Shown here: positions 16 to 53,462 of the stretch, piece by piece
Layout of the letters: the number at the start of each line of letters is the position of its first letter
How positions within the stretch are numbered: position 1 is the first letter of the stretch
Origin: a virus
Lineage: Duplodnaviria > Caudoviricetes
Virus record (IMG/VR): IMGVR_UViG_3300021093_000004
Direction: 5' to 3' (one strand)
DNA: 64,000 nt
Translations under genes and position numbers: made by a program
The notes under the pieces: model-generated
What the model was told of the DNA's origin: nothing
The model's input: only the letters and a program-made list of their open reading frames with translations
The model's database searches: none

Positions 16-1161
16 TTACTCGACAAAGCATACGTGGTTGGTTTGGGGTCCGGTTCCTACTATAGTTACCGGCAGACCAACCAAATCTTCAATGTCAAGT
101 ATGAAATCTTTCACCTTACTCGGTAGCTTGTTATAATCATTAGTCCCATAGCATGACCAATCGATATAGTTGGCAAAATTGAGGGCAATCTTCGTCGCCC
201 CGTTCGCAGCCACGGCGTCCAGAAGTTGTAATTTGGAGAAAGTGAACACCCGACGAAGCCGCTTGGTGACAGTGGTCAATTCGCCCTTCATAACATCTGG
301 TGGTGCACCACCGGCGGCAGCTACTTCGGCCCACGTAATTTCACTGTGGTCATCGTAACAATCACCGGAATATCCAACCGTATTGCCGTCTTCAATGACG
401 TTTCCCACGCGGATCGGATATGGTCTTATTACCAGATAAATATCGCCGATGAGAGAATGTCCGATTCCCATATCGGCGACGTTCTGAACTGCGGTTGTTC
501 CACGGCTGGTGCATTGTGGATAATGCGAACCGTGGTTGATATCGAGTGAGAACCCCTGTGATCCTTCATGCAGAGCGGTTTGCCCGTTTTGCAACAGGAA
601 TTTCAGAATCCGTGGAATTGACAGGTTCTCGGTGTTGCCGAGCTTAACGGTGAGTTCGTTCATCCGGCCAACAAATTGTTGAAGCTCTGGATAATCGCGT
701 GACAGCTTCAATTCCTTACGACGCATTACCTTGTCAGCAAGGAACGCCCCGCATCCTTGCATGGTGCTGGCGATGTGCTTTGTGCCGGTTTCGAGACTGG
801 CTTCTTGCTGTTTGTGTGAGTCGAGAATGACTCCAGCACGTGGATGAATGTGGGTGTTCTCTTGAACTCCGCAGATCTCGATTTCTTTCAGCATTTGGGC
901 CATGTCGTATGCCGATGACGCTCCTACGACGATGGCCGGTGAATAGTCTGTGCACCATTTCTTGAGAATTGCCGCCGATGGTAGTGCTTTAGCGACAAAA
1001 GCTTCTCCATCAATGTTGACCGCCGTATGTCCGGCGTTGCTCATGTTAGTTGTCGAGATTATTTCGGGTCGGTGTCTGTCTGCTAATGCAGTTGTGATAA
1101 GCCCTTTGCCGCAACTTCCCCACTGTCCATCAGTAACAACATTAAATCGGCCACTCAACAT
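16..1161 (-). CDS. purZ: PurZ-like 2-amino-2'-deoxyadenylosuccinate synthetase (adenylosuccinate synthetase family)
   Basis: GQWGSCGKG (Ser where PurA has Asp), NAGHT, EGSQGFSLD, TSR, RPYPIRV, ELTTVTKRLRRVFTFS, LNFANY (PurA has TKLD), GTGP. The family is certain; PurZ rather than PurA rests on these residues. Confidence 0.8.
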   Translation of the reverse strand: MLSGRFNVVTDGQWGSCGKGLITTALADRHRPEIISTTNMSNAGHTAVNIDGEAFVAKALPSAAILKKWCTDYSPAIVVGASSAYDMAQMLKEIEICGVQENTHIHPRAGVILDSHKQQEASLETGTKHIASTMQGCGAFLADKVMRRKELKLSRDYPELQQFVGRMNELTVKLGNTENLSIPRILKFLLQNGQTALHEGSQGFSLDINHGSHYPQCTSRGTTAVQNVADMGIGHSLIGDIYLVIRPYPIRVGNVIEDGNTVGYSGDCYDDHSEITWAEVAAAGGAPPDVMKGELTTVTKRLRRVFTFSKLQLLDAVAANGATKIALNFANYIDWSCYGTNDYNKLPSKVKDFILDIEDLVGLPVTIVGTGPQTNHVCFVE

Positions 1162-1957: not shown

Positions 1958-2648
1958 CGAGTAATTCTCGAAGCTGATCCGGCTGAGACTGAAATTCTTT
2001 GATAATAGTCTTGGCTTGAGCGAGATTAACTCCAAATCTCGAAGCATTGGGGCATGCTGCCACTGACTTCAAACTGGCGATATTCCCACAAACCTTAACC
2101 GGCACCTTGATGATATCACGAACATATTGGATTTGCCGATTATGCTCGTCTGGGTTGGCTTTGCTTACTTGAAGTTTGAGTAGAGTATCAGTACGAACTA
2201 ACGCCGGTGTCCTAACGGTTAATAGACCACGGCACATTGCCATGATGTTATCATCGTTTCGGAGCGAAGTTCCAAGAACAAATCGGACTTCCGTCGCATC
2301 TGACAGATGTTGTTTCACGAACTCTGTCAGTGCTTTGGATTCGATTCTCGTCTCTAATTCGAGCTTACTGGGAGTCAGCAAGAATTCGAAACCATCCGTT
2401 TCGAGAGAATCGGTTGTTAGACCCCGCATTTTGTTGACACCAAAGATCTCACCCTTCGGCCAATCAATTGGTGTGATGATCTTGAATTTGCCCCCAGCCC
2501 GACTCCTAGCAATGAGCGCGTCTGATGATAAACCCGGATGGACGACAATGGCCGGGAATTTATATTTATGAGCAAGTTCTATAGATTCTTGAATCTCGTT
2601 CACTTGCATTACATCGATTTCTAATCGATTGAATACTGACCCACTCAT
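1950..2648 (-). CDS. DeoC (deoxyribose-phosphate aldolase)-like TIM barrel, divergent
   Basis: KYKFPAIVVHP, KIITPIDWPKG, VKVCGNI and ASRFG parallel the DeoC segments AVCVxP, TVxxFPxG, VKASGGI and ATRIG. LVRTDT sits where DeoC has FIKTST. Confidence 0.6.
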   Translation of the reverse strand: MSGSVFNRLEIDVMQVNEIQESIELAHKYKFPAIVVHPGLSSDALIARSRAGGKFKIITPIDWPKGEIFGVNKMRGLTTDSLETDGFEFLLTPSKLELETRIESKALTEFVKQHLSDATEVRFVLGTSLRNDDNIMAMCRGLLTVRTPALVRTDTLLKLQVSKANPDEHNRQIQYVRDIIKVPVKVCGNIASLKSVAACPNASRFGVNLAQAKTIIKEFQSQPDQLRELLDA

Positions 2649-3022
2649 GCTTTTAATTTCTCCAATGCGAACGTGAAAGCTTCATCAACCGACGAAAACC
2701 GAAACACGTTCGGTACAAAATAGAAGGTTTTCAATTCGGTAGTTGGCTCAAGGATCAGCACGACAGGCTTATTTGATACTATTGCTGCTCCGAGTTCAAC
2801 ATGAGTGCCACTCCTGGCCGGAGGTATCATGAAAAACAAATCGGCAGACGTAACACCATTTATTTCTGCGATTCCATATTGTTCCAATTCTGATTCAGAG
2901 AAAACTTGACCATGTGTGGTCCAATCATAAGATATTGATACACCGTGCCCACGAAATCGATCCATGACCGATTTTGCTTGATCTGAATTAAACAGGCTGG
3001 TTCCAACATATACGGTAGGCAT
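2645..3022 (-). CDS. nucleoside 2-deoxyribosyltransferase / dNMP N-glycosidase-like protein
   Basis: N-terminal VYVG, SADL, SGTHVELGAAI (conserved nucleophile Glu), KPVVLI; ATGA overlap with the DeoC-like gene. Confidence 0.75.
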   Translation of the reverse strand: MPTVYVGTSLFNSDQAKSVMDRFRGHGVSISYDWTTHGQVFSESELEQYGIAEINGVTSADLFFMIPPARSGTHVELGAAIVSNKPVVLILEPTTELKTFYFVPNVFRFSSVDEAFTFALEKLKA

Positions 3023-3059: not shown

Positions 3060-4025
3060 TTATAATCTCTCAGCATGTGCAACAATTGTCGGCACAGATA
3101 TTTTATGGTCCATTTTGTTGAAGCGTTCTACGAAGTTCCATGGGTTTTCTGATGAACAGAACGTGAATTTTTGTCTTTCGCCCTCGTTGAGAACATCTGC
3201 CGCATAATCGTAAAATTCGGCTTCTTTCTGGAAACGTTCCCTTCGAACGTCTGGATTAACGTCTGGGTTGGTGCCATAGAAATGTAATTGCCCATTTAAC
3301 CCAGCTGGATTCATGTCGCAACCGAATATGTAAATGTGAGTATAACTCATCCAATACCCGAGTTGCATTGCTGCAAATACTGACGAACGCCCGATATGAA
3401 GCCCTTTTGTTAGGTCGCGGCTGAAGCCTTTGCCACCGAGATTCTTGACCTGCAATGAATTCTCTTTTTGCCGCTTGATTCCGGTACTATTGAAGATCAG
3501 GCCATTGTAACCGGCCCATAAATCTTCATGACGTCGCATTTGAGATTGGTCAAAGAATGCCCAGTGAGTTGTAGGCCAAATACGAGCGTCGGGCTTATTA
3601 ATCGACAATGTATGAATATTGGGATATCCTTTGAATTTCTCTAGTGGCACTTCGTTGATTGAAGGACCATTCCCAATTATAATTAAAATCTTGTTATAAC
3701 CATAATTCCTCAGTTGTTTGATTTTTACCAGCGAATCTGGGGTTATATCTCGACTGGTATATTTTACATTTGGTACCTTCTTGATGGCATTTTTGCGAGT
3801 TACGTGCTGTTTAGATACAGCCGCCGCCACCGGGATTTGTGGTGCGGGCTGAGATTGTTGGATTTTAACATGGACTCGGCGGTTGTTCAATTCATTGAGA
3901 TTTGCCGCCTGTCCGCTGGACGGCTTTACAACGATCTTTACAGACGACGAAGGGGTCTTAACGACTGTGCGTCTTCGCACCAGTTGTGGGCGAACCTTCA
4001 TTGTCACAATGTGATTGTTCGACAT
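3060..4025 (-). CDS. Maf/DUF115/GT42-like transferase domain with long basic N-terminal extension
   Basis: IIIGNGPSI, TLSINK, SSVFAAMQLGYWMSYTHIYIFGCDM. Confidence 0.65.
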   Translation of the reverse strand: MSNNHIVTMKVRPQLVRRRTVVKTPSSSVKIVVKPSSGQAANLNELNNRRVHVKIQQSQPAPQIPVAAAVSKQHVTRKNAIKKVPNVKYTSRDITPDSLVKIKQLRNYGYNKILIIIGNGPSINEVPLEKFKGYPNIHTLSINKPDARIWPTTHWAFFDQSQMRRHEDLWAGYNGLIFNSTGIKRQKENSLQVKNLGGKGFSRDLTKGLHIGRSSVFAAMQLGYWMSYTHIYIFGCDMNPAGLNGQLHFYGTNPDVNPDVRRERFQKEAEFYDYAADVLNEGERQKFTFCSSENPWNFVERFNKMDHKISVPTIVAHAERL

Positions 4026-18756: not shown

Positions 18757-20181
18757 ATGCCAACATCCATTATCATATACGCAACGAATCTGACTTATCT
18801 TGACAAGACCATTGATGGGATCTTGGATCAGACTCCCGCCAATCTTGTTCAGGAGATAGTCGTATACAATGCTGGTGGCTCAAATTATTCTCGTGACAAT
18901 GTTAGGGTTATCGCCGGAACGAACGTGGGAAGGGCACAAGCATGGAATCAGGCTATTGCTCAAACTACAGGCGATACGATTGTCTTTGTTAAGGGAACTA
19001 CGAAATTCGGGGTTGATTGGCTGCAACCTATATTAGAAATCCTGAAAGAAGAACCATCGGCACTGGTTACTCCGATTGTCCATGTTCTTGATACAACATT
19101 ATGGCTGTCAGAACCGAACAGATGGAAACGCTTTGGATGGAGATGGGACCTTGAATTGTACGACCGACCGTGTGTTGGTAGTCCAGATTCACCGGCAATT
19201 TCATCAAATTGCATTGCAGCAAACCGGGCATGGCTAACAGAAATTGGCCAATTTGATGATGGTATGGTTGTTGGTGCCGGAGAAGATCTCGAATTATCAA
19301 TTAGAAATTGGTTACTGGGTGGACATATATTCGTGGCTGACGAATCCACGGTGGCATGTGTGCACGAAGTGGACGCGGGATCTGGAACGATAAATAACCA
19401 TGCACGAATCGCAGAAGCATGGCTACAGAAGTACGCACATCTATTCTATAATCTGAAAGGCATAAAACCTTCCGAAGTTAATACCGGTCGGTTGAATAAT
19501 TTTTTACGATTTCGAGAAAAGCAAAAACATTCATTTGAATGGTACCTCTCAACTCAACTTCCTGAACTGTATGGAATTTATTCACTGAAAGGCACGGCGG
19601 CACAGAAACGCATTGCAGTTGTCGGGCCTGGATCGTCGCTCGATTATGTTGACAATGGCTATATTAATTCATTCGATATGATAATTGGTGTTGATTATGT
19701 CGGAAAGATATTCGATTGTGATTATATTGTGTCAGATTCGGCTACGGTGGTGACTGAGCTGCGGGCGACATATTCACCGACAAAATTCGTGTTACCAATG
19801 GCTATTAAAAACACAGTTATTGGAGAATACACTGCTACTTCGGAACTTGTCGAGGGTTCGCATCAATTTGAGTATGGCGTAAAAGGTGCACTACCTAAGG
19901 ATTTGAACCCGCCTTTCTGCAACTTTGGCAGTTCTCTTCTCGCGGCGATTCACTTTGCACTATTTCTTCAACCGAGTCAGATAACATTGTTTGGCTGCGA
20001 TAATAAATTAATTGGTGGAAGAAGCCATACAACGAAAATAGAATATTATGAAGATGGTAAGATTTGGCCGAATTCTGATAGTACCAGACGCAACTTGGCA
20101 TATTATGAGTTCGGCCTAGATCATTTGGGAAAACTTGGTAATTCTCACGGAATACCGATATTGAGAATCACACATGCATGA
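18757..20181 (+). CDS. GT-A (ppGalNAc-T/GT27-like) domain fused to a Maf/GT42-like domain
   Basis: DWLQPIL...LVTPIVHVLD, FDDGM...EDLELSIRNWLLGG, ARIAEAWL, SFEWYL...PEL; C-terminal IAVVGPGSSL...ITLFGCD. Confidence 0.7.
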   Translation: MPTSIIIYATNLTYLDKTIDGILDQTPANLVQEIVVYNAGGSNYSRDNVRVIAGTNVGRAQAWNQAIAQTTGDTIVFVKGTTKFGVDWLQPILEILKEEPSALVTPIVHVLDTTLWLSEPNRWKRFGWRWDLELYDRPCVGSPDSPAISSNCIAANRAWLTEIGQFDDGMVVGAGEDLELSIRNWLLGGHIFVADESTVACVHEVDAGSGTINNHARIAEAWLQKYAHLFYNLKGIKPSEVNTGRLNNFLRFREKQKHSFEWYLSTQLPELYGIYSLKGTAAQKRIAVVGPGSSLDYVDNGYINSFDMIIGVDYVGKIFDCDYIVSDSATVVTELRATYSPTKFVLPMAIKNTVIGEYTATSELVEGSHQFEYGVKGALPKDLNPPFCNFGSSLLAAIHFALFLQPSQITLFGCDNKLIGGRSHTTKIEYYEDGKIWPNSDSTRRNLAYYEFGLDHLGKLGNSHGIPILRITHA

Positions 20182-21934: not shown

Positions 21935-22678
21935 TTGGTAGTAACGATTGTGATGAAATCCATGTCTTCTTTACAAATCAAGTACGCTACTAAGGATGTT
22001 GTGGGATTCGTAGTCAACAGCGAGCTTTTCTATTTAAAATTCGGACCAAATATTCCACAATTGTTCGATGAATCTCTGTCTGGTCTCGTTATACCAAATC
22101 TCGATTCTTGGATTCAGTCAAAGACTCAACAGCGATATTCTTATCAATCACTGCGAGACATGGCGTTAGCGTTCCATGCGGGAATTTCTGCGGCTTATAA
22201 TCTCGACGATGTGCATACGTTGTGTGATTCAACTATTCAGTTCACAGTTCATGAAGTTAACCATAATAGTTTGATTTATGATTATTCTCTGATATATTGG
22301 ATCGAAATTCTTGGTCCGGATCAAATGGAGCTATATCTGAAAAAGATTAGGGACAACTTTGTCCGTATTCGTTCGCAGATTGGTGATGATAAATTATACA
22401 ATAATCTATGCCGAATGTATAAAACCTGTCTACGCCAGCAACCTCATAACGCCAATGTGTGTGAAAAACTTATTAAGCGTTTGGGCAGGATGCCGACAGA
22501 GCCGAGCTATCCTAAGACAGACGAGACCGATCAGCAGGTATTATTGAACACAAGAGAAGCTGTACGAAAGTCACTCGGCACGCACTATAAGAATATACCC
22601 GACCACATAGTAGAGGCTGTAAATGGTATACAAAGCGGAAGACTACCAAGGGCCGAAGGAATTCGTCCATCTTCATAA
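21935..22678 (+). CDS. hypothetical protein
   Basis: 247 aa ORF in a + strand operon; start uncertain. Confidence 0.65.
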   Translation: MVVTIVMKSMSSLQIKYATKDVVGFVVNSELFYLKFGPNIPQLFDESLSGLVIPNLDSWIQSKTQQRYSYQSLRDMALAFHAGISAAYNLDDVHTLCDSTIQFTVHEVNHNSLIYDYSLIYWIEILGPDQMELYLKKIRDNFVRIRSQIGDDKLYNNLCRMYKTCLRQQPHNANVCEKLIKRLGRMPTEPSYPKTDETDQQVLLNTREAVRKSLGTHYKNIPDHIVEAVNGIQSGRLPRAEGIRPSS

Positions 22679-24047
22679 TCATACGGTATTCTCCGCATTA
22701 GATGGCGTAGCCACTCCTGAGCAGTATGCCGAGCAATGCTATAAACGTGGATATCCGGCCATGAGTGCCACCGAGCATGGCCACATGGCATCTGTACCGG
22801 ACATGTACTTGGCATTTAAGAAATATAAGTTGAAATATATTCCCGGATGTGAGATTTATTTCAACGATTTCGAGCCAAAGAGACAAGAACTAGTCGCTCA
22901 AAAAGTGAAAATCCGCTCTCCTGAATGGCGGCAAGAAAACTTGGAGTTGGCCCAACGTATCGGTCGAAATCGACATCTCACTGTTCTATGTAAGAATGAA
23001 GTCGGTTTCCATAATCTAATAAAACTGACTACCCAGGCATATTCGACCGGACTGTTCGGACTGGGCCGAATACAATATAATCGAATCTGGTTTGATAAAT
23101 TGTGTGAATTCAAAGAAGGGCTTATTATTCTGTCTGGGTGCTTGAATGGCCCGGTGTGTCACGAACTGCGATATAAACAGTTGATGGACAGAGAAGGCAA
23201 TGTGCTGAAAGAACGCACTAAGAACGAACGTGTTCTCGATGCTGTTCGTTGGATTAAGAAATTCAAAGAGGCATTTGGAGAAGATTATTTTATCGAACTT
23301 CAAATGCCCGGAATCGAGGGTGACGACGTAATATTTCGTAACCTCGTCGATCTTGCCGATAGGTTCAAAATTCCGCTGGTACTCGCTAATGATTGCCATT
23401 ATCTGGGCCGCGAAGACTTCATTATTCAGAAAGTGATGATGGCTATTGAGCAGGAGACTACTGTTGACTCGCCTGACCTGTTTCATGTCAATAGCGACGA
23501 ACAATATATGAAGACCCGCGAAGAGCTGTGGGCCAGATTTAAGAACAATGGATATTCAAACGGGGTCGATGATCGAGTCTTTGAGCAGATGTGTGACAAT
23601 ACTCTGTTGGTTGCCGAGCGATGCCGTTCGCTTGATGTCGACATGTCCCCGAAGATTCCAGAAATAAACCGTGCTGACGATGAATTGAAACGAATCACTG
23701 CGGTTCGCTTGAAGCAGCTTGGATTGGATAAGAACCCTAAGCGATTTCTGATTGATGGGCGTGAAGTCACATATGTCGAGCAAGCGAAAATCGAACTTCA
23801 GCGGTTCATCGATAAGGGTTTCGCCAGTTACTTTTTAATCACACGCGATCTGGTAAGATATGGCCGATCTAAAGGTTGGCCGTTTAGCCCTCGTGGTAGT
23901 GCTGGTGGTTCACTGGTGTGTTACCTGCTTGGTATACATGTTATAGACCCCATGCTGTGGAATTTGTCATTCGACAGGTTTTTGTCGCCAAGTCGCGGCG
24001 GTTACATGCTAAATGTAACTATGCCGAAAGAGGAGTACATAAGTTAA
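22623..24047 (+). CDS. dnaE: DNA polymerase III alpha-like, N-terminal part (PHP domain plus RGS segment)
   Basis: HLHNHT..S.LDG, TEHG, GCEIY, SGCL, NDCHY, RGSAGGSLVCYLLGI, FDRFLSPSR; ends before PDIDxD. Confidence 0.9.
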   Translation: MVYKAEDYQGPKEFVHLHNHTVFSALDGVATPEQYAEQCYKRGYPAMSATEHGHMASVPDMYLAFKKYKLKYIPGCEIYFNDFEPKRQELVAQKVKIRSPEWRQENLELAQRIGRNRHLTVLCKNEVGFHNLIKLTTQAYSTGLFGLGRIQYNRIWFDKLCEFKEGLIILSGCLNGPVCHELRYKQLMDREGNVLKERTKNERVLDAVRWIKKFKEAFGEDYFIELQMPGIEGDDVIFRNLVDLADRFKIPLVLANDCHYLGREDFIIQKVMMAIEQETTVDSPDLFHVNSDEQYMKTREELWARFKNNGYSNGVDDRVFEQMCDNTLLVAERCRSLDVDMSPKIPEINRADDELKRITAVRLKQLGLDKNPKRFLIDGREVTYVEQAKIELQRFIDKGFASYFLITRDLVRYGRSKGWPFSPRGSAGGSLVCYLLGIHVIDPMLWNLSFDRFLSPSRGGYMLNVTMPKEEYIS

Positions 24048-25129: not shown

Positions 25130-25900
25130 ATGTCTCTTGAAGTTAAATTGACTAGCATACGAGTTAATAAAAGTCGAAAGATTAATGATGTAGATGTAAA
25201 ACGAGACAGCGAAGAAATCTATAATATTGATGGAACAGAATACTCACTCGATGGTGCTGTAGAATATTTGTCATCCAAAAAATCGCATAATCCCGGCGAA
25301 ATCGCCTATTCAAAGACTGCGTTTTTGTTGGTAGAACCTCCTTCACGGGTAATCTCTGCGCATCAAGCCAAGAATCGGCAGGACCACAAGGCATTAATTG
25401 CCAAAGCGAATGTAAAAGGATTATATCTATATTATGCGGACGTGAAATGTAGAGATGGGAAATATTATGCCGTCAAACCATGGATAGTCGATTGGGAGAC
25501 CGTCCCTGAACACCCAGAAGAAATTGCGAAACGCGAGGCCCAACAGGAGAAAAAGAAGGCAAAGGAAGCAACAAAAGAGGTACCTGAAACGCCAGAACAA
25601 GACTCGCTTACATGCCCGTATTGCTCCAAACGTATGTCAAGTACATCTGGCTTGACGCTTCATATAAAATCCAAACATCCGGATAAATTAAACCAGCATC
25701 AAACAAGCACGATGCTGGATGAAGACGACGTGGTAAGTCGTGCGTCTGAAGTGGAAGAAGTCGGACAATCACAGAGTCTCGATAGTCTTCAATGTCCGTT
25801 TTGTGATAAAAAGATGACCAGCACTCCTGGCAGAACTCTGCATATTAAAAGCAAGCATCCAGAGCGATTAGCGGAATATTTGGAGATGGATCGTGACTGA
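25130..25900 (+). CDS. protein with two C2H2 zinc fingers
   Basis: CPYCSKRMSSTSGLTLHIKSKHP and CPFCDKKMTSTPGRTLHIKSKHP. Confidence 0.8.
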   Translation: MSLEVKLTSIRVNKSRKINDVDVKRDSEEIYNIDGTEYSLDGAVEYLSSKKSHNPGEIAYSKTAFLLVEPPSRVISAHQAKNRQDHKALIAKANVKGLYLYYADVKCRDGKYYAVKPWIVDWETVPEHPEEIAKREAQQEKKKAKEATKEVPETPEQDSLTCPYCSKRMSSTSGLTLHIKSKHPDKLNQHQTSTMLDEDDVVSRASEVEEVGQSQSLDSLQCPFCDKKMTSTPGRTLHIKSKHPERLAEYLEMDRD

Positions 25901-28631
25901 CACATGGGAACAGCTAGAATCACTTGCCCGATCCGCATTAGAGAAACGCGGACTGAATGGCGTGTATAGCGAACGTCTCGATTTCGAACTCAAAGAGATC
26001 GATAAGCAAGGTGCGAATGCTTATTGGCTTGCACTGGTGTCTGCTGATAAAAAGTTTAAGTCCAATCCGAGCATGCTGGTATTGCCATGGTTGTTGGGAA
26101 TGGTTCAAGATGACCCCATTGCCAATCGTAAGGAACCGATGCTGTGCAGTGTGCGTGCGTCGGTGGTCAAAGAGCATTTGCGAACGCACGGCAAAATCCC
26201 ATCGGATCTGATTAAAGATCAGGACATGCCGGATATTGACCTCGATTGCTTGCCGGAAGCACGAGACCCGATTAAAGAATATGCAATGGAGCAATATGGG
26301 GTCGGATTGAATGATGATGGTTACGGTCCTGTGTGTAGTGTCGGCACGTGGCAGACATATAAATTCAAATCGGCGATCATGGACGTGTCAAAAGCTCTGG
26401 AAGCTGTTGATCCGGCAAGAGTTTTCGAACTAACCAAGAAACTACCGGAAGACGTAGACAATCTTAAAGATGGCGGATATGCTGCGTGCAAGAACCGCGT
26501 TATCGATGGAATTACTAATCAAGAAAAAGAATGTGGGACAGTTCACGATCAAGCTGTGTGTCCGTCGTGTGGGTCATCGGACACTGATGCTCCCACTATT
26601 GGTAAGCTTTTGCAAGAACACGCTGATTTAGCTGCGTTCAATCGGCTTTTTCCAACAGTTATAGACTATGCAGTGAAACTAGTTGGGCGTATCCGAAATA
26701 TGGGTATGCACGCCGGGGCGTTGATTATCGCCGATCGAACGTTGTATGGCAATATTCCACTCGCGAAGAATAGCAATCGTGGATACTGGGTGTCGATGTG
26801 GACAGAAGGCAGAAATACTCAACTGTCGAAATTTGGATATTGCAAATGGGACGTTCTTGGATTAAAGACTCTTGAATATATCTTCAGATGCTCTCAGCTT
26901 ATTGAACAAAATCGCGGTATTACATTTGGTCCAAATGCCGAAGGCTGGGATGATATTGACCCTCTTCAAAATCGTGCGGGGCATTATTTTGATGGCTGTG
27001 GGAAAAAGTGCTACATCAATCTGAATGATCCACACGCTCTCAAACTTGCTAACGAGCAGAAGACTGATGCTGTTTTCCAATTTGATACCGATCTAGCCAA
27101 AAGTTTTTTGGCACACGGTGTCCGGCATTTTAATGACTTGATGTTGATAAACGCTATGGGCCACCCTGGGCCGATGGCATCGATTCCTGAAGCAATGCAA
27201 AATCGAGATGATAAGAAGGCATTGTGGAAACAGAAGCTTCATCCGGATATCTTGCAAGTTCTCGAAGACACTTATGGGGTTATTGTCTATCAAGAGCAGT
27301 TGCAGGCCATATGGCAACGCTTGGCTGGGTTCACCGCGCCGGAAGCTCAGGAAGCCCGGAAAGCTGTTGCTAAAAAATGGGCACATAAATTGAAGCCGAT
27401 TCGGGCTAAATGGATCGATGGTGCCTCGAAAACTCTTGGTCGTGCTGAAGCCGAATTATGGTGGACCAAGATGGAAACGTTCGGGCGATATGCATTCAAT
27501 AAATCTCACTCTGTGTCATATTGTTTAGTGGCTCTTCGCTGTTTATGGTTAAAGGCCCATTTCGCTCCGGAGTTTTGGGCTGCGGTGATGAGCGATTGTC
27601 ATCCGGATAAACTGGTTAGGTATATGAGTGTTGCTCGTGCCGAAGACTGGCACCCGACTGATATCACGTATTCCGGGCGTGCTCCGAAAGTGCGAGCCAA
27701 AGGCATCACATTTGGAACGTTGAACATTGATAATCTCACCGTCAATTATACTGTTACTGATGATATTGTCAATCAGGGACTCATTGGAATTAAAAAAGTC
27801 GGTGACAAAGCTGCTGAAGTATTCGCCGGTCGTGGTAATTGGACTAGCATCGATGAATTTGTTGAGTCGTCAGAAGGCAGACGAAATAAGACTGTTTTAG
27901 AGCGATTCATCAAACTTGGCGCGTTCGGTTCAATTAAGGGTCATGAAAATTCTCAAGCATTGTGGCAGTGGTACCAATACCAATATTGCTCTGGTGTGAC
28001 TGCATTGAGGACGGAAATTCGGCAGAAACTACTGGCCGAAGATGGTTGGAATGACAAGACCATCAATGAGGAACGGAATCGACAGATTGACGAATATAAG
28101 CGTCAATTTCCGAATCGTCGTAAAATTCCGCCTAAATTCAATAATTGGGTACCTAAGCCTGACGACACCCGCGAACGAGTAATGGCGTTGTATCGGGAAG
28201 ACTTTAGCCAAGCCGAGAAACTTGCGTTTCAGAAAGAATTTTTGGGCTATTATCTTGACTCACCTTTGGAATTGTTTGCTATTCGCGGTGGATGCACTAT
28301 CAAAGATGCAAAAGCTGCGTGCATTGCTGGTGCTGAAGATGCTCATCTTGAGGTCATGGTGGTTGACCAACAGTTTGCGACTACGAAACCGCGTGACGGT
28401 CGAAGTGGGTCACAATATGTCAAACTGACTGTGACAGATGGCATTCAACGAACCATGATATTTATATGGAATAATGAATTATCTTGTCAAGATCCTCAAA
28501 ATTTGGTCGAAGGTGCAGGCATCCGCATGCGAGTACGATACGACAAGCAGCGTGGCACATTCAGTATGTGTCATGGTTCGAATATAATTAGCTTACGTCG
28601 CTATCAAGAAGACGAAAATGCAACTACCTGA
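25893..28631 (+). CDS. dnaE: DNA polymerase III alpha-like, C-terminal catalytic part
   Basis: MPDIDLD, GMHAGALII, KWDVLGLKTL, VFQF, YGVIVYQEQ, FGRYAFNKSHSVSY, EFLGYYL, C-terminal OB-like region. Confidence 0.93.
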   Translation: MTDTWEQLESLARSALEKRGLNGVYSERLDFELKEIDKQGANAYWLALVSADKKFKSNPSMLVLPWLLGMVQDDPIANRKEPMLCSVRASVVKEHLRTHGKIPSDLIKDQDMPDIDLDCLPEARDPIKEYAMEQYGVGLNDDGYGPVCSVGTWQTYKFKSAIMDVSKALEAVDPARVFELTKKLPEDVDNLKDGGYAACKNRVIDGITNQEKECGTVHDQAVCPSCGSSDTDAPTIGKLLQEHADLAAFNRLFPTVIDYAVKLVGRIRNMGMHAGALIIADRTLYGNIPLAKNSNRGYWVSMWTEGRNTQLSKFGYCKWDVLGLKTLEYIFRCSQLIEQNRGITFGPNAEGWDDIDPLQNRAGHYFDGCGKKCYINLNDPHALKLANEQKTDAVFQFDTDLAKSFLAHGVRHFNDLMLINAMGHPGPMASIPEAMQNRDDKKALWKQKLHPDILQVLEDTYGVIVYQEQLQAIWQRLAGFTAPEAQEARKAVAKKWAHKLKPIRAKWIDGASKTLGRAEAELWWTKMETFGRYAFNKSHSVSYCLVALRCLWLKAHFAPEFWAAVMSDCHPDKLVRYMSVARAEDWHPTDITYSGRAPKVRAKGITFGTLNIDNLTVNYTVTDDIVNQGLIGIKKVGDKAAEVFAGRGNWTSIDEFVESSEGRRNKTVLERFIKLGAFGSIKGHENSQALWQWYQYQYCSGVTALRTEIRQKLLAEDGWNDKTINEERNRQIDEYKRQFPNRRKIPPKFNNWVPKPDDTRERVMALYREDFSQAEKLAFQKEFLGYYLDSPLELFAIRGGCTIKDAKAACIAGAEDAHLEVMVVDQQFATTKPRDGRSGSQYVKLTVTDGIQRTMIFIWNNELSCQDPQNLVEGAGIRMRVRYDKQRGTFSMCHGSNIISLRRYQEDENATT

Positions 28632-38456: not shown

Positions 38457-39764
38457 GTGTGTTTTGAGGATGTGAGCACTATCTATTTTTACACATTGTT
38501 TGATCCCACGTCCGGTAAGCCGCGATGTGCGGGCATACGTATTGGCGACAAGATTACTGTTTATGATCTATTCCGCCCCGGTGCTGGTAAGAAAATTCGC
38601 ACTATCAATGAGACTATAGCCAAAATCCGCGAGTTTCTTATAACATCGAATGATCGTGGCCACACGATCATAGCTTCTAACTTCAAAAAGCTCCTGCATA
38701 CGTATGGTCTGCCATTAGATTCTCGACAGTATAATGTGTATGATGTTCACATCGATAATCCGGCTAATCCGATTCGTCCGACCAACAGTCAATCAAAAGA
38801 CAATTTGCTGTTGCGAAAGATTCTAGAACGAATGGCATCGGGCCATCACTATGAATACCAGAAATTAATATCTAATGCTGCCGTAGTTTACCAAGATTTG
38901 GAAAATCGTGGCCTTTTTATTAATGACGAATTATTTAGACCAGAATGGTCTATGATTACATTCTCTGGTCGTAGCAAGACTACTGGATTCAATATTCAAG
39001 GATTTCATGAAGACCACTATGTCCGAACAGTTGATGCATCAATGAATAGTGTGCTGCTGCATTTTGACTGGATTTCGGCTGATATTCGTGCTGCGTCATT
39101 ATTATCTGGGGACCCATTATTAACTAAAAGTTTCGAATCCTCTGACCCGTACACTGAAATGGTCGGGTTCTTCCAGAAGCACAGAGCCGGGGAGATAGAC
39201 AGAGAGGAATGTAAAAAGTATCTGCTGCGTTCTATAAACTCGATGGACATTGAAAGCGATGCATTTGTCATTTATCAGCAATTGGGTGAATGGATACTGA
39301 AATGTTATAATATCACTCGTAAATCTGATGGATTCCTTGAAACATTATTACATCGTAGGTTTAAGGTTTCTCGTGCGAAAAATGCATTGGCAGTGTTGAA
39401 TGGAGCTATGCAAGGATCAGTCGCCCATGCAATGCACGCTGCTATTAGAAGGATTTGGGAGCGTCTTGGGTCATATATTTTGGTCGAGATTCATGACTCT
39501 ATTATTATGTCGGTTCCAAATGATTCGGCTGTGATACGGGCTACGATAGATACTGTAGCACCGATAATGATGCATCCGTTTTCGGGATTATTAGCAGATG
39601 ACCCATTGTTTCCAGTCAGAGTGAGTATTGGAAAGCGTTGGAAGAAATGGCAATTATTAGAGACTCATCGAGCGTCTGGAATTGAACGTGTCCAAAAAAC
39701 GCGACAAGCAACTCCAACGACAGCGATCGAAGGCCAAGAAACGGGAAAACCGGCTGAAGCGTGA
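38457..39764 (+). CDS. minimal family A DNA polymerase-like protein (palm/fingers, no clear exonuclease)
   Basis: TFSGR, motif A HFDWISADIR, motif B REECKK, NGAMQGSVA, motif C VEIHDS. Confidence 0.8.
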   Translation: MCFEDVSTIYFYTLFDPTSGKPRCAGIRIGDKITVYDLFRPGAGKKIRTINETIAKIREFLITSNDRGHTIIASNFKKLLHTYGLPLDSRQYNVYDVHIDNPANPIRPTNSQSKDNLLLRKILERMASGHHYEYQKLISNAAVVYQDLENRGLFINDELFRPEWSMITFSGRSKTTGFNIQGFHEDHYVRTVDASMNSVLLHFDWISADIRAASLLSGDPLLTKSFESSDPYTEMVGFFQKHRAGEIDREECKKYLLRSINSMDIESDAFVIYQQLGEWILKCYNITRKSDGFLETLLHRRFKVSRAKNALAVLNGAMQGSVAHAMHAAIRRIWERLGSYILVEIHDSIIMSVPNDSAVIRATIDTVAPIMMHPFSGLLADDPLFPVRVSIGKRWKKWQLLETHRASGIERVQKTRQATPTTAIEGQETGKPAEA

Positions 39765-40080: not shown

Positions 40081-40612
40081 GAAATTACCTTCATGGATAG
40101 AAGAAAATTTAATGACTGTAGCCCCAGAATTGCGGGGGACTACACTATTCAAATTCAAGGTCAAATTACAAGTCACTGAAGGTAAAGATCCTTCCACCGG
40201 CAAATACCGGCAAAAAGAGCTTGAAGTCGATCTTCTACCAGACCTTGATCTCGATTACGAAATTCTCGAACAACAGATGCTAGATTTCCCGGCCCAATAT
40301 GCTTTTTGGGCATCGGTATACTCTGAAGTCAGGATGGGTGTTGCTGTCGCAGAACGCAGACTCAAGATGCGTTATGGGACAGCGATGGAGCGTGTGCAGC
40401 AGGAATTCGCAGACCGTAACCTTAAACCAACAGTGGAGGTGATAAAGAAAATAGTCGAGAAAGACGCAGATTTAGCCAAAGCAGATTTAGAGTACCAGAA
40501 ATTGCAAATGCAAGCTGGCAAACTATATCACATGCTTGAGGCACTCAAGGCCAAGATTGACGTTGCCCGGTCTGTCGTGGGCTTCAAACGACAGGAATAC
40601 GAAAAGGGCTAA
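40070..40612 (+). CDS. UvsY-like recombination mediator
   Basis: Helical; LEQQMLDFPAQYAFW...LEALKAK; lies just upstream of the SSB as in T4-like phages. Confidence 0.6.
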   Translation: MTDKKLPSWIEENLMTVAPELRGTTLFKFKVKLQVTEGKDPSTGKYRQKELEVDLLPDLDLDYEILEQQMLDFPAQYAFWASVYSEVRMGVAVAERRLKMRYGTAMERVQQEFADRNLKPTVEVIKKIVEKDADLAKADLEYQKLQMQAGKLYHMLEALKAKIDVARSVVGFKRQEYEKG

Positions 40613-40698
40613 TACCTAGCTCTTCCTAACTTCACAAACAGTGTTTGGCACTACGACCATAGGTCACTACGCCAGATCACACAAGGAGAAAGAAACTC

Positions 40699-41847
40699 AT
40701 GCCGTACGATATTGACGCAATCCGTAAGAACATCAAGAAGGCTGTCAGTGGCAAGTTCACTGACCCTGACGAATTCAAGCCTGAAAAGGCCAAGGAAGGA
40801 ACCGAGATCAAATACAGGTTCTTCGTCCTTCCTCCGATTAAGCAAGGTGATGTCCTCAAATCTGGTACTGCCACCAGATCGATGGACAACTTCTTCCTGA
40901 CCCATGGCAATCACTGGATCAACGATCGTCCACATGCCTGCCCACGAATCTGGGACGGTTCTGATTGCGAAATCTGCCAATATGGATTTGACTTGTACAA
41001 AGAGTGCAAGGAAAAGAAGCTTGGCGAGGAACGCAAGAAGGAGATCGGTAAGCAATGGATGCCCAATACCAACTACATGGTGAATATCTTCTTCACCCAG
41101 TGGAAGGGCAATCCGGAAGACCTTCGTGGAAAGGTCAAGTTCTACAACGCTCCCAAGACCTGTCTGGACAAATGGATGGCCACCCTGATGAAGGATGACA
41201 AGGGTGACGCGGAAGATCCAGAAGCTTACGGTGTCTTTTTCGACGAGAACTCTGCTTTCTGCTTCGAGTTGGTTGTCACGAAGGACGGTCGTACCAACGG
41301 TTATAAGACCTCTGGCTTCATAAAGAACAACGGCACTCCTGTGCCGATGATCATGAACGAAGATCGGACGCCTAACAAGAAGAAGATCGAGCAGTTGTTG
41401 CAACTTAGAATCGACCTTTTCACCAAGGTGGAGACGCCAGATCCGGGTAAGATTGCTCGTCTCGCTAATACCATGATCAGCGGCGACGATGATGACGCTG
41501 AAGTTGGCGGCGGATTCGATGCTGATGAAACCGAACCTGAAGCACCGGCTGCGACCACTCAGGCCGCACCAGCAAAAAAGGTTGAGAAGCCCGCTGGGAA
41601 GCCTGCGGCGGCTGCGACGCAGAAGTCGTCCAAACCCGTTCAATCCCGAACGGAAACGAAGAAAACCACAGAGCAGCCCGCTCCGTCGCCGGGCGATGAT
41701 GACGATGATATCGCATCGCAGATGGGCGATGCTTTCGGCGATGAGGCTCAGCTCGATAGTTCTTCAGAAGATTCTACTCCTGCCAATAATGATGATGACA
41801 TCGGCGGAGAAGATATCGACGCACTTCTGAACCAGTTAGACGACTAA
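40699..41847 (+). CDS. T4 gp32-like single-stranded DNA-binding protein
   Basis: YRFFVLPP, HGNH...CP...CEIC, NYMVNI, GKVKFY, acidic tail ending DIDALLNQLDD; AGGAG SD. Confidence 0.85.
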   Translation: MPYDIDAIRKNIKKAVSGKFTDPDEFKPEKAKEGTEIKYRFFVLPPIKQGDVLKSGTATRSMDNFFLTHGNHWINDRPHACPRIWDGSDCEICQYGFDLYKECKEKKLGEERKKEIGKQWMPNTNYMVNIFFTQWKGNPEDLRGKVKFYNAPKTCLDKWMATLMKDDKGDAEDPEAYGVFFDENSAFCFELVVTKDGRTNGYKTSGFIKNNGTPVPMIMNEDRTPNKKKIEQLLQLRIDLFTKVETPDPGKIARLANTMISGDDDDAEVGGGFDADETEPEAPAATTQAAPAKKVEKPAGKPAAAATQKSSKPVQSRTETKKTTEQPAPSPGDDDDDIASQMGDAFGDEAQLDSSSEDSTPANNDDDIGGEDIDALLNQLDD

Positions 41848-47661: not shown

Positions 47662-48244
47662 ACTACCGCAACTTCCACAAGTTTTAACTTATCCTTCATA
47701 TCTGCCATTTGCTAAATTAGAAAAGACTGTCCATAGCTTATTCTGTTATGTGATTCGGCACTACGGGAACGATGGGCTTTCTGTTCTTGTATATCGTCAA
47801 CCGACTAAGGATCAAGTAGTCGTCATCTGCGGTGATTGGAAGGGCAATAATTTAGATATAACTTACGATTCGCCGCTATCCAATATTGCGAACAAATTTC
47901 TCCAAGAGTCCGTCGCAACGTTTATTGGCACAATGCGACTGATTAAATTGGATCAAGCACAATTCTTCTTTGGTGTCATTGACGACGAATTGGTACTTGT
48001 TGATATTCAAGTATCGCGTAATAAATTGACCGGACCCGGCATGGTTCGTGATATTTTTGGCAAAATATTCAAGACCCAGGAGATTCTAAAAGTCGAAGTT
48101 CTTGATGATCGAGCTATAGAAGGTATCCGTGATGGTGCTGGTACCTATGCTGGAGATCTGATTATTAAGCCATCTCGATTTCGTATGTATCACGACGAGA
48201 AAATTAATTCATTCGCTCCGATGTATGTTGAGGTGGTACGCTAA
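47591..48244 (+). CDS. hypothetical protein
   Basis: Long ORF in operon; start uncertain. Confidence 0.65.
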   Translation: MRRKGTGQSNSTTTPETRSSGISKLPQLPQVLTYPSYLPFAKLEKTVHSLFCYVIRHYGNDGLSVLVYRQPTKDQVVVICGDWKGNNLDITYDSPLSNIANKFLQESVATFIGTMRLIKLDQAQFFFGVIDDELVLVDIQVSRNKLTGPGMVRDIFGKIFKTQEILKVEVLDDRAIEGIRDGAGTYAGDLIIKPSRFRMYHDEKINSFAPMYVEVVR

Positions 48245-50211
48245 TGCCCGAATATGTCAATCCGAATGCGTTTACCGTGCACTTGGCCGGACCCGATGGG
48301 AAGATTATCAAGGTAAAGAGCCGCCAGAAAGTGGTTTTGTCTGAATTCTACGAGAGGTATCGGACCAGGGGGTTTATTAAGCTAGTATCTGAGGTTCAAT
48401 CGCCGCCTGTTTCGGCTCAAATTGCTCCGACTAGGAAAATTCAGGCTAAAATCAATCTAACCACCCCAGTCAAGAGACGGCAACAACAATCGGCTACGCG
48501 ACCACCAGTCGCTCAGCCACAACCCCAGCCTCAGATTCCAAGCCAAGGACAGATAATTCAAAATCGCAAACAACGTCGAGAAGAAATCGCAAGAGCACGG
48601 AAGATTTCAAAAACTAAACCAGCAAAAACGGTAGTGAAGAGACCTCAAATAATTGGTCGGACGATTAATACGAATCCGACAGAACTGCTAAAATCGAATT
48701 TGGCGAGAGGCAACTATCCCATCAGCAATGGTGTCGGGGTTGGTATACTATCATTTAATCGGAAAGATGCTCTTCAACGCCTCGTCAATTCGATCATTGC
48801 CACAACCGATCTTCGTCGTACGACCATCTTTGTCAGTGATGACGGCAGTACAAATGAGGATATCAAAGCGTATCTCGACGAATTAGCACAAAATGATAAT
48901 TTTGTGATAATCAGAAACGAGAACAGGATTGGTATCGCCGGAAATACTAATCGATTGCTTCGCTGCTTGTCCAGATTCGCATATGGCATAATTTTAAATG
49001 ATGATATCGAAATTATGGGACAGGGGTGGGATACGTTCTATGTGGAGGCGATGGCGAAATCCGCAATGCACCATTTCATTTATCGTCAAGAAGGCGTATA
49101 TGGGGCGACACTTGGCAGTTCGAGAAAGATAAACGATGTCGACATAAGTATGGTGTCTGAAAGGCCGCACGGAGCGGTGCTGGCATTTACGAATCATATG
49201 CTTGAGAAATGTGGTTATTTTGATGAGGGATATGGCTTATACGGAATGGAGCATGTGGATTGGTCTAGAAAAGCATGGGAATTTGGATTGCAGCCAGAAG
49301 GCTTTTTCGACGTAGCCGGATCAGACCAGTTTTTCTATCTGCATTCTGATGTCTCTGCTGTTGAGAATCGGCAAACGTTGCTGAAAGATGCGAAGAAGAG
49401 ATTCGAGGAACGAATCATCCAACGCTGTGCTCCAACTGATGCATCACAGGTGCCGGAAATTAGTTATATTATTCCATTCAGAAATATTGGTCGCACTGAC
49501 GCAATAAGAAGTGTCGTCAACAATATTAGAAGCCAGCGGTTCCCTGTTATTAATATCTTGCTTGTAGAACAAGATGTCGAATCACGTATCACAGCTTCAG
49601 ACTTTAGTCCAGTTAATTACTATCTTGCTAGTGAGGTTAACAACCCGCTTTTTAACAAATCAATGGCGTTCAATTTTGCTGCATCGAAAGTCGCAACCCA
49701 ACGAGTGATACTTCACGACGCCGATACCATTGTTCAAGGGCATTATACTGCATCTGTGTACAAGACGCTTGATACTCATACGGCTTGTCACGTTGGTAAT
49801 GCTGTGATTTATGCAGACACTGCTTCCAGCGACATCATAAACGCGACGGGTCTTGTCACTAACGAAACTCGTTGTGAACGTGTAGTCGGATATTTTGAAG
49901 GTGGGTCACTTGCTTGTCATATGAAAACCTACTGGCAATGCGGAGCCTTTAATGAAGATTTTTGGGGATATGGCTGCGAGGATTGTGATTTTTATGCTCG
50001 ATTATCAGCAAATAGTGTGTGGTCGGAAGACCGCGTATTTGACTTCTTGCACTTGTGGCACGGACGAGTAGCGGGATGGAACATGCACCACGAGACTAAT
50101 CGGCGTATTGAAGCAGCACTGACTAGCCGTCAGATGTATGAACGAGTTCAGCTTCAATATTCGCAACTCCATCGGTTAGGATATGGGCATTTCATCTCCA
50201 AATCTGAATGA
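48244..50211 (+). CDS. tandem GT2/GT7-like glycosyltransferase with low-complexity N-terminal region
   Basis: VGILSFNR...VSDDGS...ILNDD...YGMEHVDW; second domain YIIPFR...FNKS...LHDAD...WGYGCEDCDF. Confidence 0.88.
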   Translation: MPEYVNPNAFTVHLAGPDGKIIKVKSRQKVVLSEFYERYRTRGFIKLVSEVQSPPVSAQIAPTRKIQAKINLTTPVKRRQQQSATRPPVAQPQPQPQIPSQGQIIQNRKQRREEIARARKISKTKPAKTVVKRPQIIGRTINTNPTELLKSNLARGNYPISNGVGVGILSFNRKDALQRLVNSIIATTDLRRTTIFVSDDGSTNEDIKAYLDELAQNDNFVIIRNENRIGIAGNTNRLLRCLSRFAYGIILNDDIEIMGQGWDTFYVEAMAKSAMHHFIYRQEGVYGATLGSSRKINDVDISMVSERPHGAVLAFTNHMLEKCGYFDEGYGLYGMEHVDWSRKAWEFGLQPEGFFDVAGSDQFFYLHSDVSAVENRQTLLKDAKKRFEERIIQRCAPTDASQVPEISYIIPFRNIGRTDAIRSVVNNIRSQRFPVINILLVEQDVESRITASDFSPVNYYLASEVNNPLFNKSMAFNFAASKVATQRVILHDADTIVQGHYTASVYKTLDTHTACHVGNAVIYADTASSDIINATGLVTNETRCERVVGYFEGGSLACHMKTYWQCGAFNEDFWGYGCEDCDFYARLSANSVWSEDRVFDFLHLWHGRVAGWNMHHETNRRIEAALTSRQMYERVQLQYSQLHRLGYGHFISKSE

Positions 50212-50410
50212 TATTATCAAATTCGTGGTGGTTACTTCTGAAGCCGCTGAGTTCTGCATGCGCCGTGGGATAACAGGAAAAGTTGTCGGACAACATGGCC
50301 CCATGCTGGAAATAGACGTTGGGTTTGGGTATAATATTTATACCCATTTACCTGAAGTTGAAGTCGTTGCAGTGCGATCAGAGATTCCGATTCCGGAGGA
50401 TGTAACATGA
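50183..50410 (+). CDS. small hypothetical protein
   Basis: 75 aa ORF in operon. Confidence 0.55.
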   Translation: MGISSPNLNDIIKFVVVTSEAAEFCMRRGITGKVVGQHGPMLEIDVGFGYNIYTHLPEVEVVAVRSEIPIPEDVT

Positions 50411-51354
50411 AAGTATTAGTCTGCCATCGTCCCGGTGGTGCGTTCGGATATATTAGTGACAGTTGGATTAATGCCCTACGAGATAAAGGGCATACGGTTC
50501 AACGCTGGGATGGGCATGACCACTCATGGCATGATTTTTCGCCGAATTTGTATATCGGGTGCTCTGGGCATAAACAGCCGATTCCACATCAACGGTCTGC
50601 GAAAATCGCTATCCATGTGAATCCCTATGGTCCGACAAAAATTCAGGGCATTGCTGAGTCCGATGAGAATATTCGTTGGACATTAAATCAAAAGCCCGAT
50701 GTGGTGTTCGGGTATGGTCACGAAGACGACCGAATTTTGTGGTCTTATTGGACTCAAAAACATGATATTCCGTGGGTTCCGATGCCGACCGCTGGAGATA
50801 AGACGCTGTTTCATCAATCTTCAGAAAATGATAAACAATATGATATTGTGTATCTTGGGGGTCGATGGCAGTACAAGGGTCTAATCATTGATGCTTATCT
50901 TATTCCATTCCTACAACAATCGAATAATTATAAACTTCACGGGTGGGGAGATTGGCCATCTAATATCTGTTCTGGGATTCTTGCAGAAGACCAAGTGAAC
51001 CGATTTCTTGGGAGTGGGCGTGTTGGTCCATGCATCTCGGAACGCCATACTCACGAATATGGCATCGATATTCCGGAGCGAGCATTCAAAGTTGCTCTAT
51101 GTGGTACGTTGGTGGTCCATGATGCAGTGGTTGCTATTCGCAGAATGATTCCATCCGCAATCATTGCAACCAATCCGGATCAATTTCGCAACTATTGTCT
51201 TCATTTCGCTAAACCGGAAAACGCTGCGGAAAGAATTGAAGTTACAAATCGCCAACGGAACGAAGTTTTGGAGGCACATACATACCATCATAGGATGGCG
51301 ACATTATTTGCCGCATTAGGGTTTCATACTGAAGCACAGCAAATGCTTTCATGA
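50407..51354 (+). CDS. CgeB-like GT-B glycosyltransferase
   Basis: YDIVYLGGR, IPERAFKVALCG, HTYHHRM. Confidence 0.8.
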   Translation: MKVLVCHRPGGAFGYISDSWINALRDKGHTVQRWDGHDHSWHDFSPNLYIGCSGHKQPIPHQRSAKIAIHVNPYGPTKIQGIAESDENIRWTLNQKPDVVFGYGHEDDRILWSYWTQKHDIPWVPMPTAGDKTLFHQSSENDKQYDIVYLGGRWQYKGLIIDAYLIPFLQQSNNYKLHGWGDWPSNICSGILAEDQVNRFLGSGRVGPCISERHTHEYGIDIPERAFKVALCGTLVVHDAVVAIRRMIPSAIIATNPDQFRNYCLHFAKPENAAERIEVTNRQRNEVLEAHTYHHRMATLFAALGFHTEAQQMLS

Positions 51355-53194: not shown

Positions 53195-53425
53195 CTATCT
53201 GACGACGTAGGTAAGTAGACCGAGATGACGCAACTGCTCAAGCTGCCCTTGGTCCAGGCGACGGCTCTCGATGGAGAATTCGGCTCCTGGAGCAATCGGC
53301 ATCTGGGATGCTGTCGCAGATGGGATATCAGACCCACTGGCAGCATTGGCAGTTGGGATGCTGTTAACGAGAATGGGGACAACTTGCTTCGAAACATTCG
53401 TAATTGTCGTCAGGCTGGTTGCCAT
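53195..53425 (-). CDS. small hypothetical protein
   Basis: 76 aa ATG ORF, convergent on the macrodomain gene. Confidence 0.55.
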   Translation of the reverse strand: MATSLTTITNVSKQVVPILVNSIPTANAASGSDIPSATASQMPIAPGAEFSIESRRLDQGQLEQLRHLGLLTYVVR

Positions 53426-53462
53426 CGTATTTCTCCTGAGTATTTATTGTAATTGGGCCGCT

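Follow-up and report, generated by a model that had tools for sequence, protein, structure and literature searches.

Does a jumbo phage with a family C polymerase replace deoxyadenosine in its DNA by 2-amino-2'-deoxyadenosine (dZ)? This question is raised by a gene at positions 16-1161 (minus strand) of a stretch of 64,000 nucleotides, called the window in the following, from the virus record IMGVR_UViG_3300021093_000004 (Duplodnaviria; Caudoviricetes) of IMG/VR. A preliminary description made from the sequence had reported there a synthetase with the signature of PurZ, the enzyme of Z-genome phages, in a T4-like jumbo phage with DnaE. According to our analysis, the product of 16-1161 is most likely a functional ATP-type PurZ of a deep new branch, as predicted from its residues and its place in the trees. 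We consider it somewhat probable (about 0.58) that such a PurZ feeds dZ into the DNA of a lineage of DnaE-encoding jumbo phages, with adenine removed by non-canonical enzymes.

To our knowledge, Z genomes have been confirmed chemically only in small sipho- and podophages (about 40-70 kb), which use DpoZ or PrimPol. In a literature search on PurZ with jumbo phages, DnaE or huge phages, with incomplete coverage, no paper describing this combination was found, and Z genomes were described in small phages only. If the proposed reading is true, Z chemistry reaches genomes about ten times larger and a bacterial family C replicase. It would also add a new route for purging adenine from the precursor pool, and new enzymes for making Z-DNA in cells, namely a PurZ branch, a nucleoside monophosphate (NMP) glycosidase and a DERA-like protein.

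Family and diagnostic residues of the synthetase

The open reading frame (ORF) 16-1161 is intact, starts with ATG and encodes 381 amino acids. It was assigned to the PurZ-type succino-amino-deoxyadenylate synthases by Pfam, PHROG and PDB matches, alignment and trees. The three motifs pointed out in the preliminary description were all recovered in the protein: GSCGKG (residues 15-20), a site of the type TTVTK..RRVFTFS (TTVTKRLRRVFTFS, residues 296-309) and LNFANY (residues 327-332). The protein belongs to the adenylosuccinate-synthetase fold, with a match to PF00709 (adenylosuccinate synthetase) at E 2.7e-37, and PHROG 1211 ('2-aminooxy adenylosuccinate synthetase') was matched at E 2.6e-62. 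Since both matches are strong, the motif set is not due to chance. In the PDB, PurA of P. horikoshii (5K7X, 2.4e-39), PurZ of S-2L (7ODX, 7.9e-38) and PurZ of phiVC8 (6FM1, 2.1e-36) were matched about equally well, and the PurZ0 structure 7VF6 was far weaker (E 4.7e-20).

The residues were compared with PurZ of S-2L, a phiVC8-like vibriophage, SH-Ab 15497 and PMBT28, with PurZ0 of Archimedes and Wayne, and with 15 PurA taken from genomes (four short archaeal, three long archaeal and eight bacterial). Sites in PurZ are numbered according to phiVC8 PurZ. In all 15 PurA the P-loop site is occupied by Asp and the nucleotide-base site reads T-[KCM]-x-D. At these sites the query carries Ser and N-F-A-N-Y, and the Ser-type P-loop and the N-F site are likewise present in the four PurZ references. 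At S14, T262, W252, Y244, P233 and N294-F295-x-x-Y298 the query and 13 of 13 sampled close relatives agree with PurZ, and each of the 15 PurA differs. The functional meaning of the sites linked to the use of dGMP and ATP is taken from bioRxiv 10.1101/2025.10.22.683976. With the residue roles given there, S14 and T262 of the pocket for dGMP's 2-amino group (F12, S14, T262) are kept and F12 is changed to Trp, while the site for the adenine of ATP (F295/Y298, N-F-x-x-Y) is present as LNFANY in place of the GTP motif TKxD. The aspartate site TTVTK..RR, the catalytic His, the Lys of GKG and the Gln of EGSQG are all intact. The claim that the protein is PurZ-like at all three diagnostic sites was thus borne out by the alignment, and also by the trees described below.

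In general, the enzyme resembles the ATP-dependent, dGMP-specific PurZ of S-2L (7ODX) and phiVC8 (6FM1) in fold, P-loop Ser, T262, W252, Y244 and P233. The N-F-x-x-Y ATP site, the aspartate site TTVTK..RR.FTFS and the side of the PurZ/PurZ0 split are shared as well. In contrast to these enzymes it has a C-terminal segment like that of archaeal PurA, Trp at position 12 and a score below the NCBIfam cut-off. The short archaeal PurA of the P. horikoshii type (5K7X) gave the best raw E-value in the PDB and is similar to the query in the C-terminal region, but differs from it by the catalytic Asp, by T-[MC]-x-D and by the missing PurZ insertion that bears W252. Neither the Asp of GDEGKG nor the T-x-x-D guanine site of short archaeal PurA was found in the query by alignment.

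The two groups of Ser-type enzymes are told apart at the base site. The preliminary description had held that the GTP-using PurZ0 keeps the Asp, which is wrong: PurZ0 of Archimedes and Wayne read GSEAKG, and Ser was reported for 100% of phage PurZ and PurZ0 (PMC12884076). PurZ0 has this Ser in common with PurZ and is set apart by S/T-M-x-D-Q at positions 294-298, the NTP-base site, where the query has N-F-A-N-Y. The identity between query and PurZ0 is 27-29%, and PurZ0 branches before the group of the query. Accordingly, in the alignment and the careful tree the query showed neither the GTP-type base site S/T-M-x-D-Q nor a placement in the PurZ0 clade.

Phylogeny and distribution of the branch

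Two trees were calculated, a quick one with 93 rows and a careful one with 54 rows, and their branching order agrees. Short archaeal PurA is basal in both. In the careful tree the Ser-type proteins form a single clade (support 100/100), within which PurZ0 branches first. The remaining Ser-type group (95/88) includes the clade of canonical PurZ (100/99) as well as a second, separate one (99/97), to which the jumbo-phage group of the query belongs; this group itself is supported with 100/98. A phylogeny with PurA, PurZ and PurZ0 had been proposed as a check, with clustering with archaeal-type PurA as the outcome that would speak against PurZ. The query lies on the side of the ATP-type PurZ, and an exclusive clade of the jumbo-phage group and short archaeal PurA was rejected by the approximately unbiased (AU) test (p 0.0037).

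The branch is widespread. A word-indexed search yielded more than 120 protein clusters with 60-85% identity to the query, many of them on contigs of 200-440 kb. Among 120 close homologues and the query, GS[CTA]GKG is kept in 120 of 121 and LNFANY also in 120 of 121, one sequence giving no pattern match. An exhaustive search of representatives at 50% identity resulted in 351 clusters at E <1e-30. The P-loop was readable in 125 of the best 150 of these 351 representatives and is of the Ser type in every case (125/125, Asp 0). No protein of an isolated phage with more than 38% identity to the query was found; the enzymes of isolates have 34-38% identity. The view best supported by these sequences is that the PurZ branch is deep and has been fixed across a large freshwater clade of jumbo phages.

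Some PurZ homologues have a length of 750-1200 amino acids (P0122, P0123, P0126, P0135, P0137) and align with the query in two stretches that lie apart, as would be expected if they contain inteins or other gene insertions. Furthermore, a 447-amino-acid homologue of the Ser type (GSSGKG) adjoins the terminase in Flavobacterium phage MaF61 (L152:3974-5317), a cultured lake isolate with a genome of 167.8 kb. It is distant, with 27% identity to the query and a long branch. MaF61 is a possible experimental handle on a Ser-type homologue.

The gene module around purZ and the exclusion of adenine

The purZ gene lies in a conserved module. The order p321, NDT-like, DERA-fold, (zinc-ribbon), p128, PurZ, isomerase-like, p74, p145 was found in 14-16 of 16 related loci, and the module genes in the window, all on the minus strand, abut or overlap in an operon-like manner. 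For a possible removal of adenine the NDT-superfamily protein of 125 amino acids (2645-3022; 15/16 loci) deserves attention. It was recognized by a weak match to PF05014, its predicted fold (pLDDT 95.5) and a profile match to BcmB. Foldseek with the model led to CMP N-glycosidases (BcmB, MilB), NDTs and DNPH1. The profile matched BcmB in the PDB with 3e-7, and also BlsM and MilB, through the common catalytic-Glu motif P..G[TS]H.E.G.A. The NDT-superfamily fold and the catalytic Glu, as expected of a DmtZ, are present. Compared with MilB, BcmB, BlsM and DNPH1, with which it shares the fold and the motif P..G[TS]H[VI]E[IL]G.A, the protein is shorter, has 15-23% identity and stands in a context of DNA precursors rather than of antibiotic biosynthesis. 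From its model and motif it is a candidate for a dAMP-removing enzyme, closest to the nucleoside-5'-monophosphate N-glycosidases (BcmB, MilB, BlsM, DNPH1). In PurZ0 phages the NDT-like DmtZ hydrolyses dAMP and moves deoxyribose-5-phosphate onto Z (PMC12884076), and NDT genes were associated with dZ contigs in a preprint. The query phage resembles the PurZ0 phages in the Ser-type P-loop and in having, instead of DatZ and MazZ, an enzyme of the NDT superfamily and a dUTPase-family gene, but its NDT-like protein is nearer to MilB and BcmB than to their DmtZ.

The stop of the NDT-like gene overlaps the start of the gene for a DERA-fold protein of 232 amino acids (1950-2648; 16/16 loci), which was recognized by its predicted structure (pLDDT 86.5). 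The top 50 of 50 structure matches in the PDB are DERA with TM scores of 0.75-0.79, in agreement with the TIM-barrel fold of DERA. The sequence profile gave no match in the PDB, and hhalign against DeoC of E. coli aligned 46 N-terminal columns only. Next to it, a protein of 128 amino acids is encoded between the DERA-fold gene and purZ (1237-1623; 16/16 loci), for which no family, feature, fold or structure match was obtained in Pfam, PHROG and structure searches. On the other side of purZ follows a sugar-phosphate isomerase/epimerase-like TIM barrel of 260 amino acids (PF01261, E 1.7e-12), of which the window holds the first codons only (1-12). The gene starts 3 nt after the purZ stop, extends past the left edge (genome coordinates 40382-41164) and is syntenic in 14 of 16 loci. 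In the Atlas its structure matches a sugar phosphate isomerase/epimerase (TM 0.90).

From these genes the following pathway can be proposed. The PurZ-type enzyme would convert dGMP, aspartate and ATP to N6-succino-2-amino-2'-deoxyadenylate, from which adenylosuccinate lyase would release dZMP; this lyase would be the host PurB, although the phage also has a short PurB-like gene. Kinases would bring dZMP to dZTP, and the DnaE-type replicase would insert dZ opposite T. The NDT-like, N-glycosidase-like protein would clear dAMP to adenine and deoxyribose-5-phosphate, as DmtZ does in PurZ0 phages, and the DERA-fold and isomerase-like neighbours would handle the sugar phosphate. A protein of the adenosine-deaminase family, conserved in the clade, might add to the exclusion of adenine. 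Its divergent gene (genome 5853-6833, minus strand) is present in four of five clade genomes. A sister lineage of the PurZ (51% identity) has a bona fide adenosine deaminase gene which overlaps the purZ start by 4 nt (L180:6934-8004), and the contig also carries ribonucleotide reductase (RNR), nucleoside diphosphate kinase (NDK), DnaB, deoxynucleoside monophosphate (dNMP) kinase and a DnaE of full length. A further member of the 99/97 clade is encoded on a 428-kb contig with Pol III delta/delta'. What the sequences show is the family of the synthetase, its residues and phylogeny, the synteny and the missing helper genes, whereas the substrates, the roles of the neighbouring genes and the presence and extent of dZ in the phage DNA are inferred; Z-DNA throughout the jumbo-phage lineage is plausible.

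Helper genes were sought throughout the contig and in four relatives. Among these relatives is a genome of 355,825 bp with terminal repeats, scored as 100% complete. A dUTPase-family gene was found in five of five genomes. Its product reaches the NCBIfam cut-off for dut (TIGR00576), which distinguishes it from the situation in PurZ0 phages, and has 34-37% identity to DutZ over just 80-94 residues. The search for RNR gave weak matches only, and a T4-type dNMP kinase was not found. One PurB-type adenylosuccinate lyase of 349 amino acids (genome 154776-155825, minus strand) scored 275 bits with TIGR00928 (cut-off 326) and E 1.8e-64 in the PDB. A dihydroorotase-like gene (PyrC), an auxiliary of pyrimidine synthesis, was observed at 59417-60658. 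The sole HD protein in the set, encoded by the 356-kb relative, was rejected as DatZ (PHROG 5889; BLAST E 0.67).

Several results weigh against a functional PurZ with a Z genome. At the position of F12 of phiVC8 the query has Trp, as in PurA; Trp at this site is also found in 29 of 55 metagenomic Ser-type representatives. The NCBIfam model for PurZ, NF038379, gives 220 bits, under the cut-off of 300 bits, and the archaeal PurA model is about equal with 211 bits, while S-2L PurZ reaches 350 bits and the phiVC8-like enzyme 397 bits. The low score is explained by the archaeal-PurA-like C-terminal segment, which the query keeps and the small-phage PurZ have lost. The AU test did not reject a jumbo-phage group that branches off ahead of every other Ser-type enzyme (p 0.22). 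Within the contig and the four relatives, DatZ (phrog_7076, PF13023 HD_3), MazZ (PF04447/DUF550), MazG (PF03819) and DUF5664 (PF18909) were not found, whereas PF04447 and PF18909 were detected in known Z phages as positive controls. DpoZ was also not found, nor the canonical company of DatZ, MazZ, DpoZ or PrimPol, in the contig or the complete 356-kb relative. Unlike in S-2L and phiVC8, purZ is not located beside DatZ, MazZ or DpoZ, and it lies in a genome of about tenfold the size, with DnaE. The inspection of the genes beyond the left window edge for datZ and mazZ, recommended in the preliminary description, revealed none there or elsewhere in the contig or the complete relative. According to published work, full Z substitution needs dZTP synthesis plus removal of dATP (PMC12697855). 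The PurB-like gene is C-terminally short, without about 85 family residues, and none of the four relatives searched has it. The pairwise similarity of the NDT-like protein to DmtZ is not significant (BLAST E 0.04-0.6), and hhalign aligned the catalytic motif only (E 0.0013, probability 19%). Finally, the Schiff-base Lys on strand beta-6 of DERA appears to be replaced by Arg, as read from motif and strand matching rather than from a residue-level superposition. Strand 150-153 reads L-V-R-T-D-T where DERA has V/I-K-T-S-T, and R152 is invariant in 13 homologues, as is the kept Lys of beta-7, K185. The reading relies on motif matching because sequence profiles do not reach DERA, and the chemistry of the protein is uncertain because the Schiff-base motif seems altered.

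Since DatZ, MazZ/DUF550, DUF5664 and DpoZ are absent from the lineage, adenine exclusion, if any, would proceed via other enzymes. A bolder form of the proposal is put forward tentatively, with doubts prevailing: a clade of T4-capsid jumbo phages (230-440 kb) would have fully Z genomes, a DnaE/Pol III-type replicase and adenine exclusion at the NMP level, by the module of N-glycosidase, DERA-fold protein and isomerase and/or by the adenosine-deaminase-family protein, and would represent a third independent solution to Z-genome biosynthesis. The absence of every canonical pool-clearing enzyme with positive controls, together with the reported need for both dZTP synthesis and dATP degradation in complete replacement (PMC12697855), favours another explanation, which is unlikely but has to be taken seriously. 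A true PurZ would lead to partly Z-substituted DNA without DatZ-type removal of dATP, or dZ nucleotides would disturb pools or defence instead of entering the genome. Against this, the alternative candidates for adenine removal, namely the operon's NDT-like gene and the adenosine-deaminase-family gene, are conserved, and a core role is suggested by the strong conservation in over 100 lineages.

The partners in the operon are unlike any described Z cluster, the DERA Schiff-base Lys reads Arg in 13 of 13 homologues, the enzyme stays under the curated PurZ cut-off, and the genome is rich in glycosyltransferases. These observations could also be explained if the PurZ-like, NMP-glycosidase-like, altered DERA-fold and isomerase-like proteins make another product, either a purine deoxynucleotide with another modification or a nucleoside metabolite outside DNA, the PurZ-like residues reflecting ancestry. 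We regard this as improbable: all residues reported to define the use of dGMP and ATP are retained, and in related lineages the enzyme is accompanied by adenosine deaminase, NDK, RNR and DnaE, which are genes for DNA precursors. Least likely, with hardly any weight left, is an auxiliary metabolic PurA forming adenylosuccinate from IMP and aspartate for cleavage to AMP by the phage PurB-like lyase and a boost of adenylate in infection, for although the PurB-like lyase and the dihydroorotase-like gene occur in the same genome, and the C-terminal third resembles short archaeal PurA (211 bits with the archaeal PurA hidden Markov model), every readable homologue has Ser in place of the catalytic Asp and has lost the GTP-base motif, grouping with archaeal PurA was rejected and PurB is not conserved in the clade.

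Replication genes and further features of the phage

The window is part of a 157-kb IMG/VR record, which is estimated to be 43% complete. The contig is present in many lake-water metagenomes, and relatives of the phage span 230-440 kb. A T4 gp23-type major capsid protein (E 3.5e-81) and a gp32-like single-stranded DNA-binding protein are encoded, as well as bacterial-type RecA, DnaB, NAD ligase and 5'-3' exonuclease. No family B polymerase was found in the phage. Together with DnaE, these findings broadly agree with the description of a jumbo phage that is T4-like and has a family C polymerase. With regard to DnaE as the polymerase the description is incomplete: DnaE is present, but a protein of 435 amino acids with a weak match to the family-A (PolA) polymerase domain, conserved in the clade, is encoded as well (38457-39764, plus strand). 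As DpoZ this protein was rejected (17.7 bits, cut-off 500 bits).

DnaE was identified by family search in two pieces on the plus strand. The N-terminal piece (22623-24047) comprises the PHP domain and the initial part of the Pol III alpha domain and stops just ahead of the catalytic MPDxDxD motif. The C-terminal piece (25893-28631) contains the remainder of Pol III alpha, including the catalytic MPDIDLD, the fingers and the helix-hairpin-helix motif, and opens with about 110 residues resembling a repeat of the segment before the break. Three ORFs of 180, 154 and 256 amino acids without clear family lie in the 1.85 kb between the pieces. In the 356-kb relative a DnaE fragment with an intein-like end is followed by a HD-domain gene.

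Two further members of the block around purZ are also encoded on the minus strand. The MptE/DUF115-like protein of 321 amino acids, an upstream member of the block (3060-4025), has a weak match to PF01973 and to a sialyltransferase PHROG, and is syntenic in 15 of 16 loci. The zinc-ribbon protein of 148 amino acids (1601-2047) is a variable member, detected in 7 of 16 loci, with a match to Zn_ribbon_4 below the cut-off. To the left of purZ the isomerase-like TIM barrel is accompanied by small ORFs, a protein of 1653 amino acids and NucS. This NucS-type mismatch endonuclease (genome 32859-33488, minus strand) is syntenic with the purZ block in seven related loci.

The window contains at least four genes for glycosyltransferases (GT2 and GT1-like), at 18757-20181, 48244-50211, 50407-51354 and 53271-54317. 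The set suggests an extensive capacity for glycan or DNA glycosylation. Furthermore, a protein of 464 amino acids at 20486-21880 matches the actin-like family Volactin of Pfam (PF25216, E 6.9e-43).

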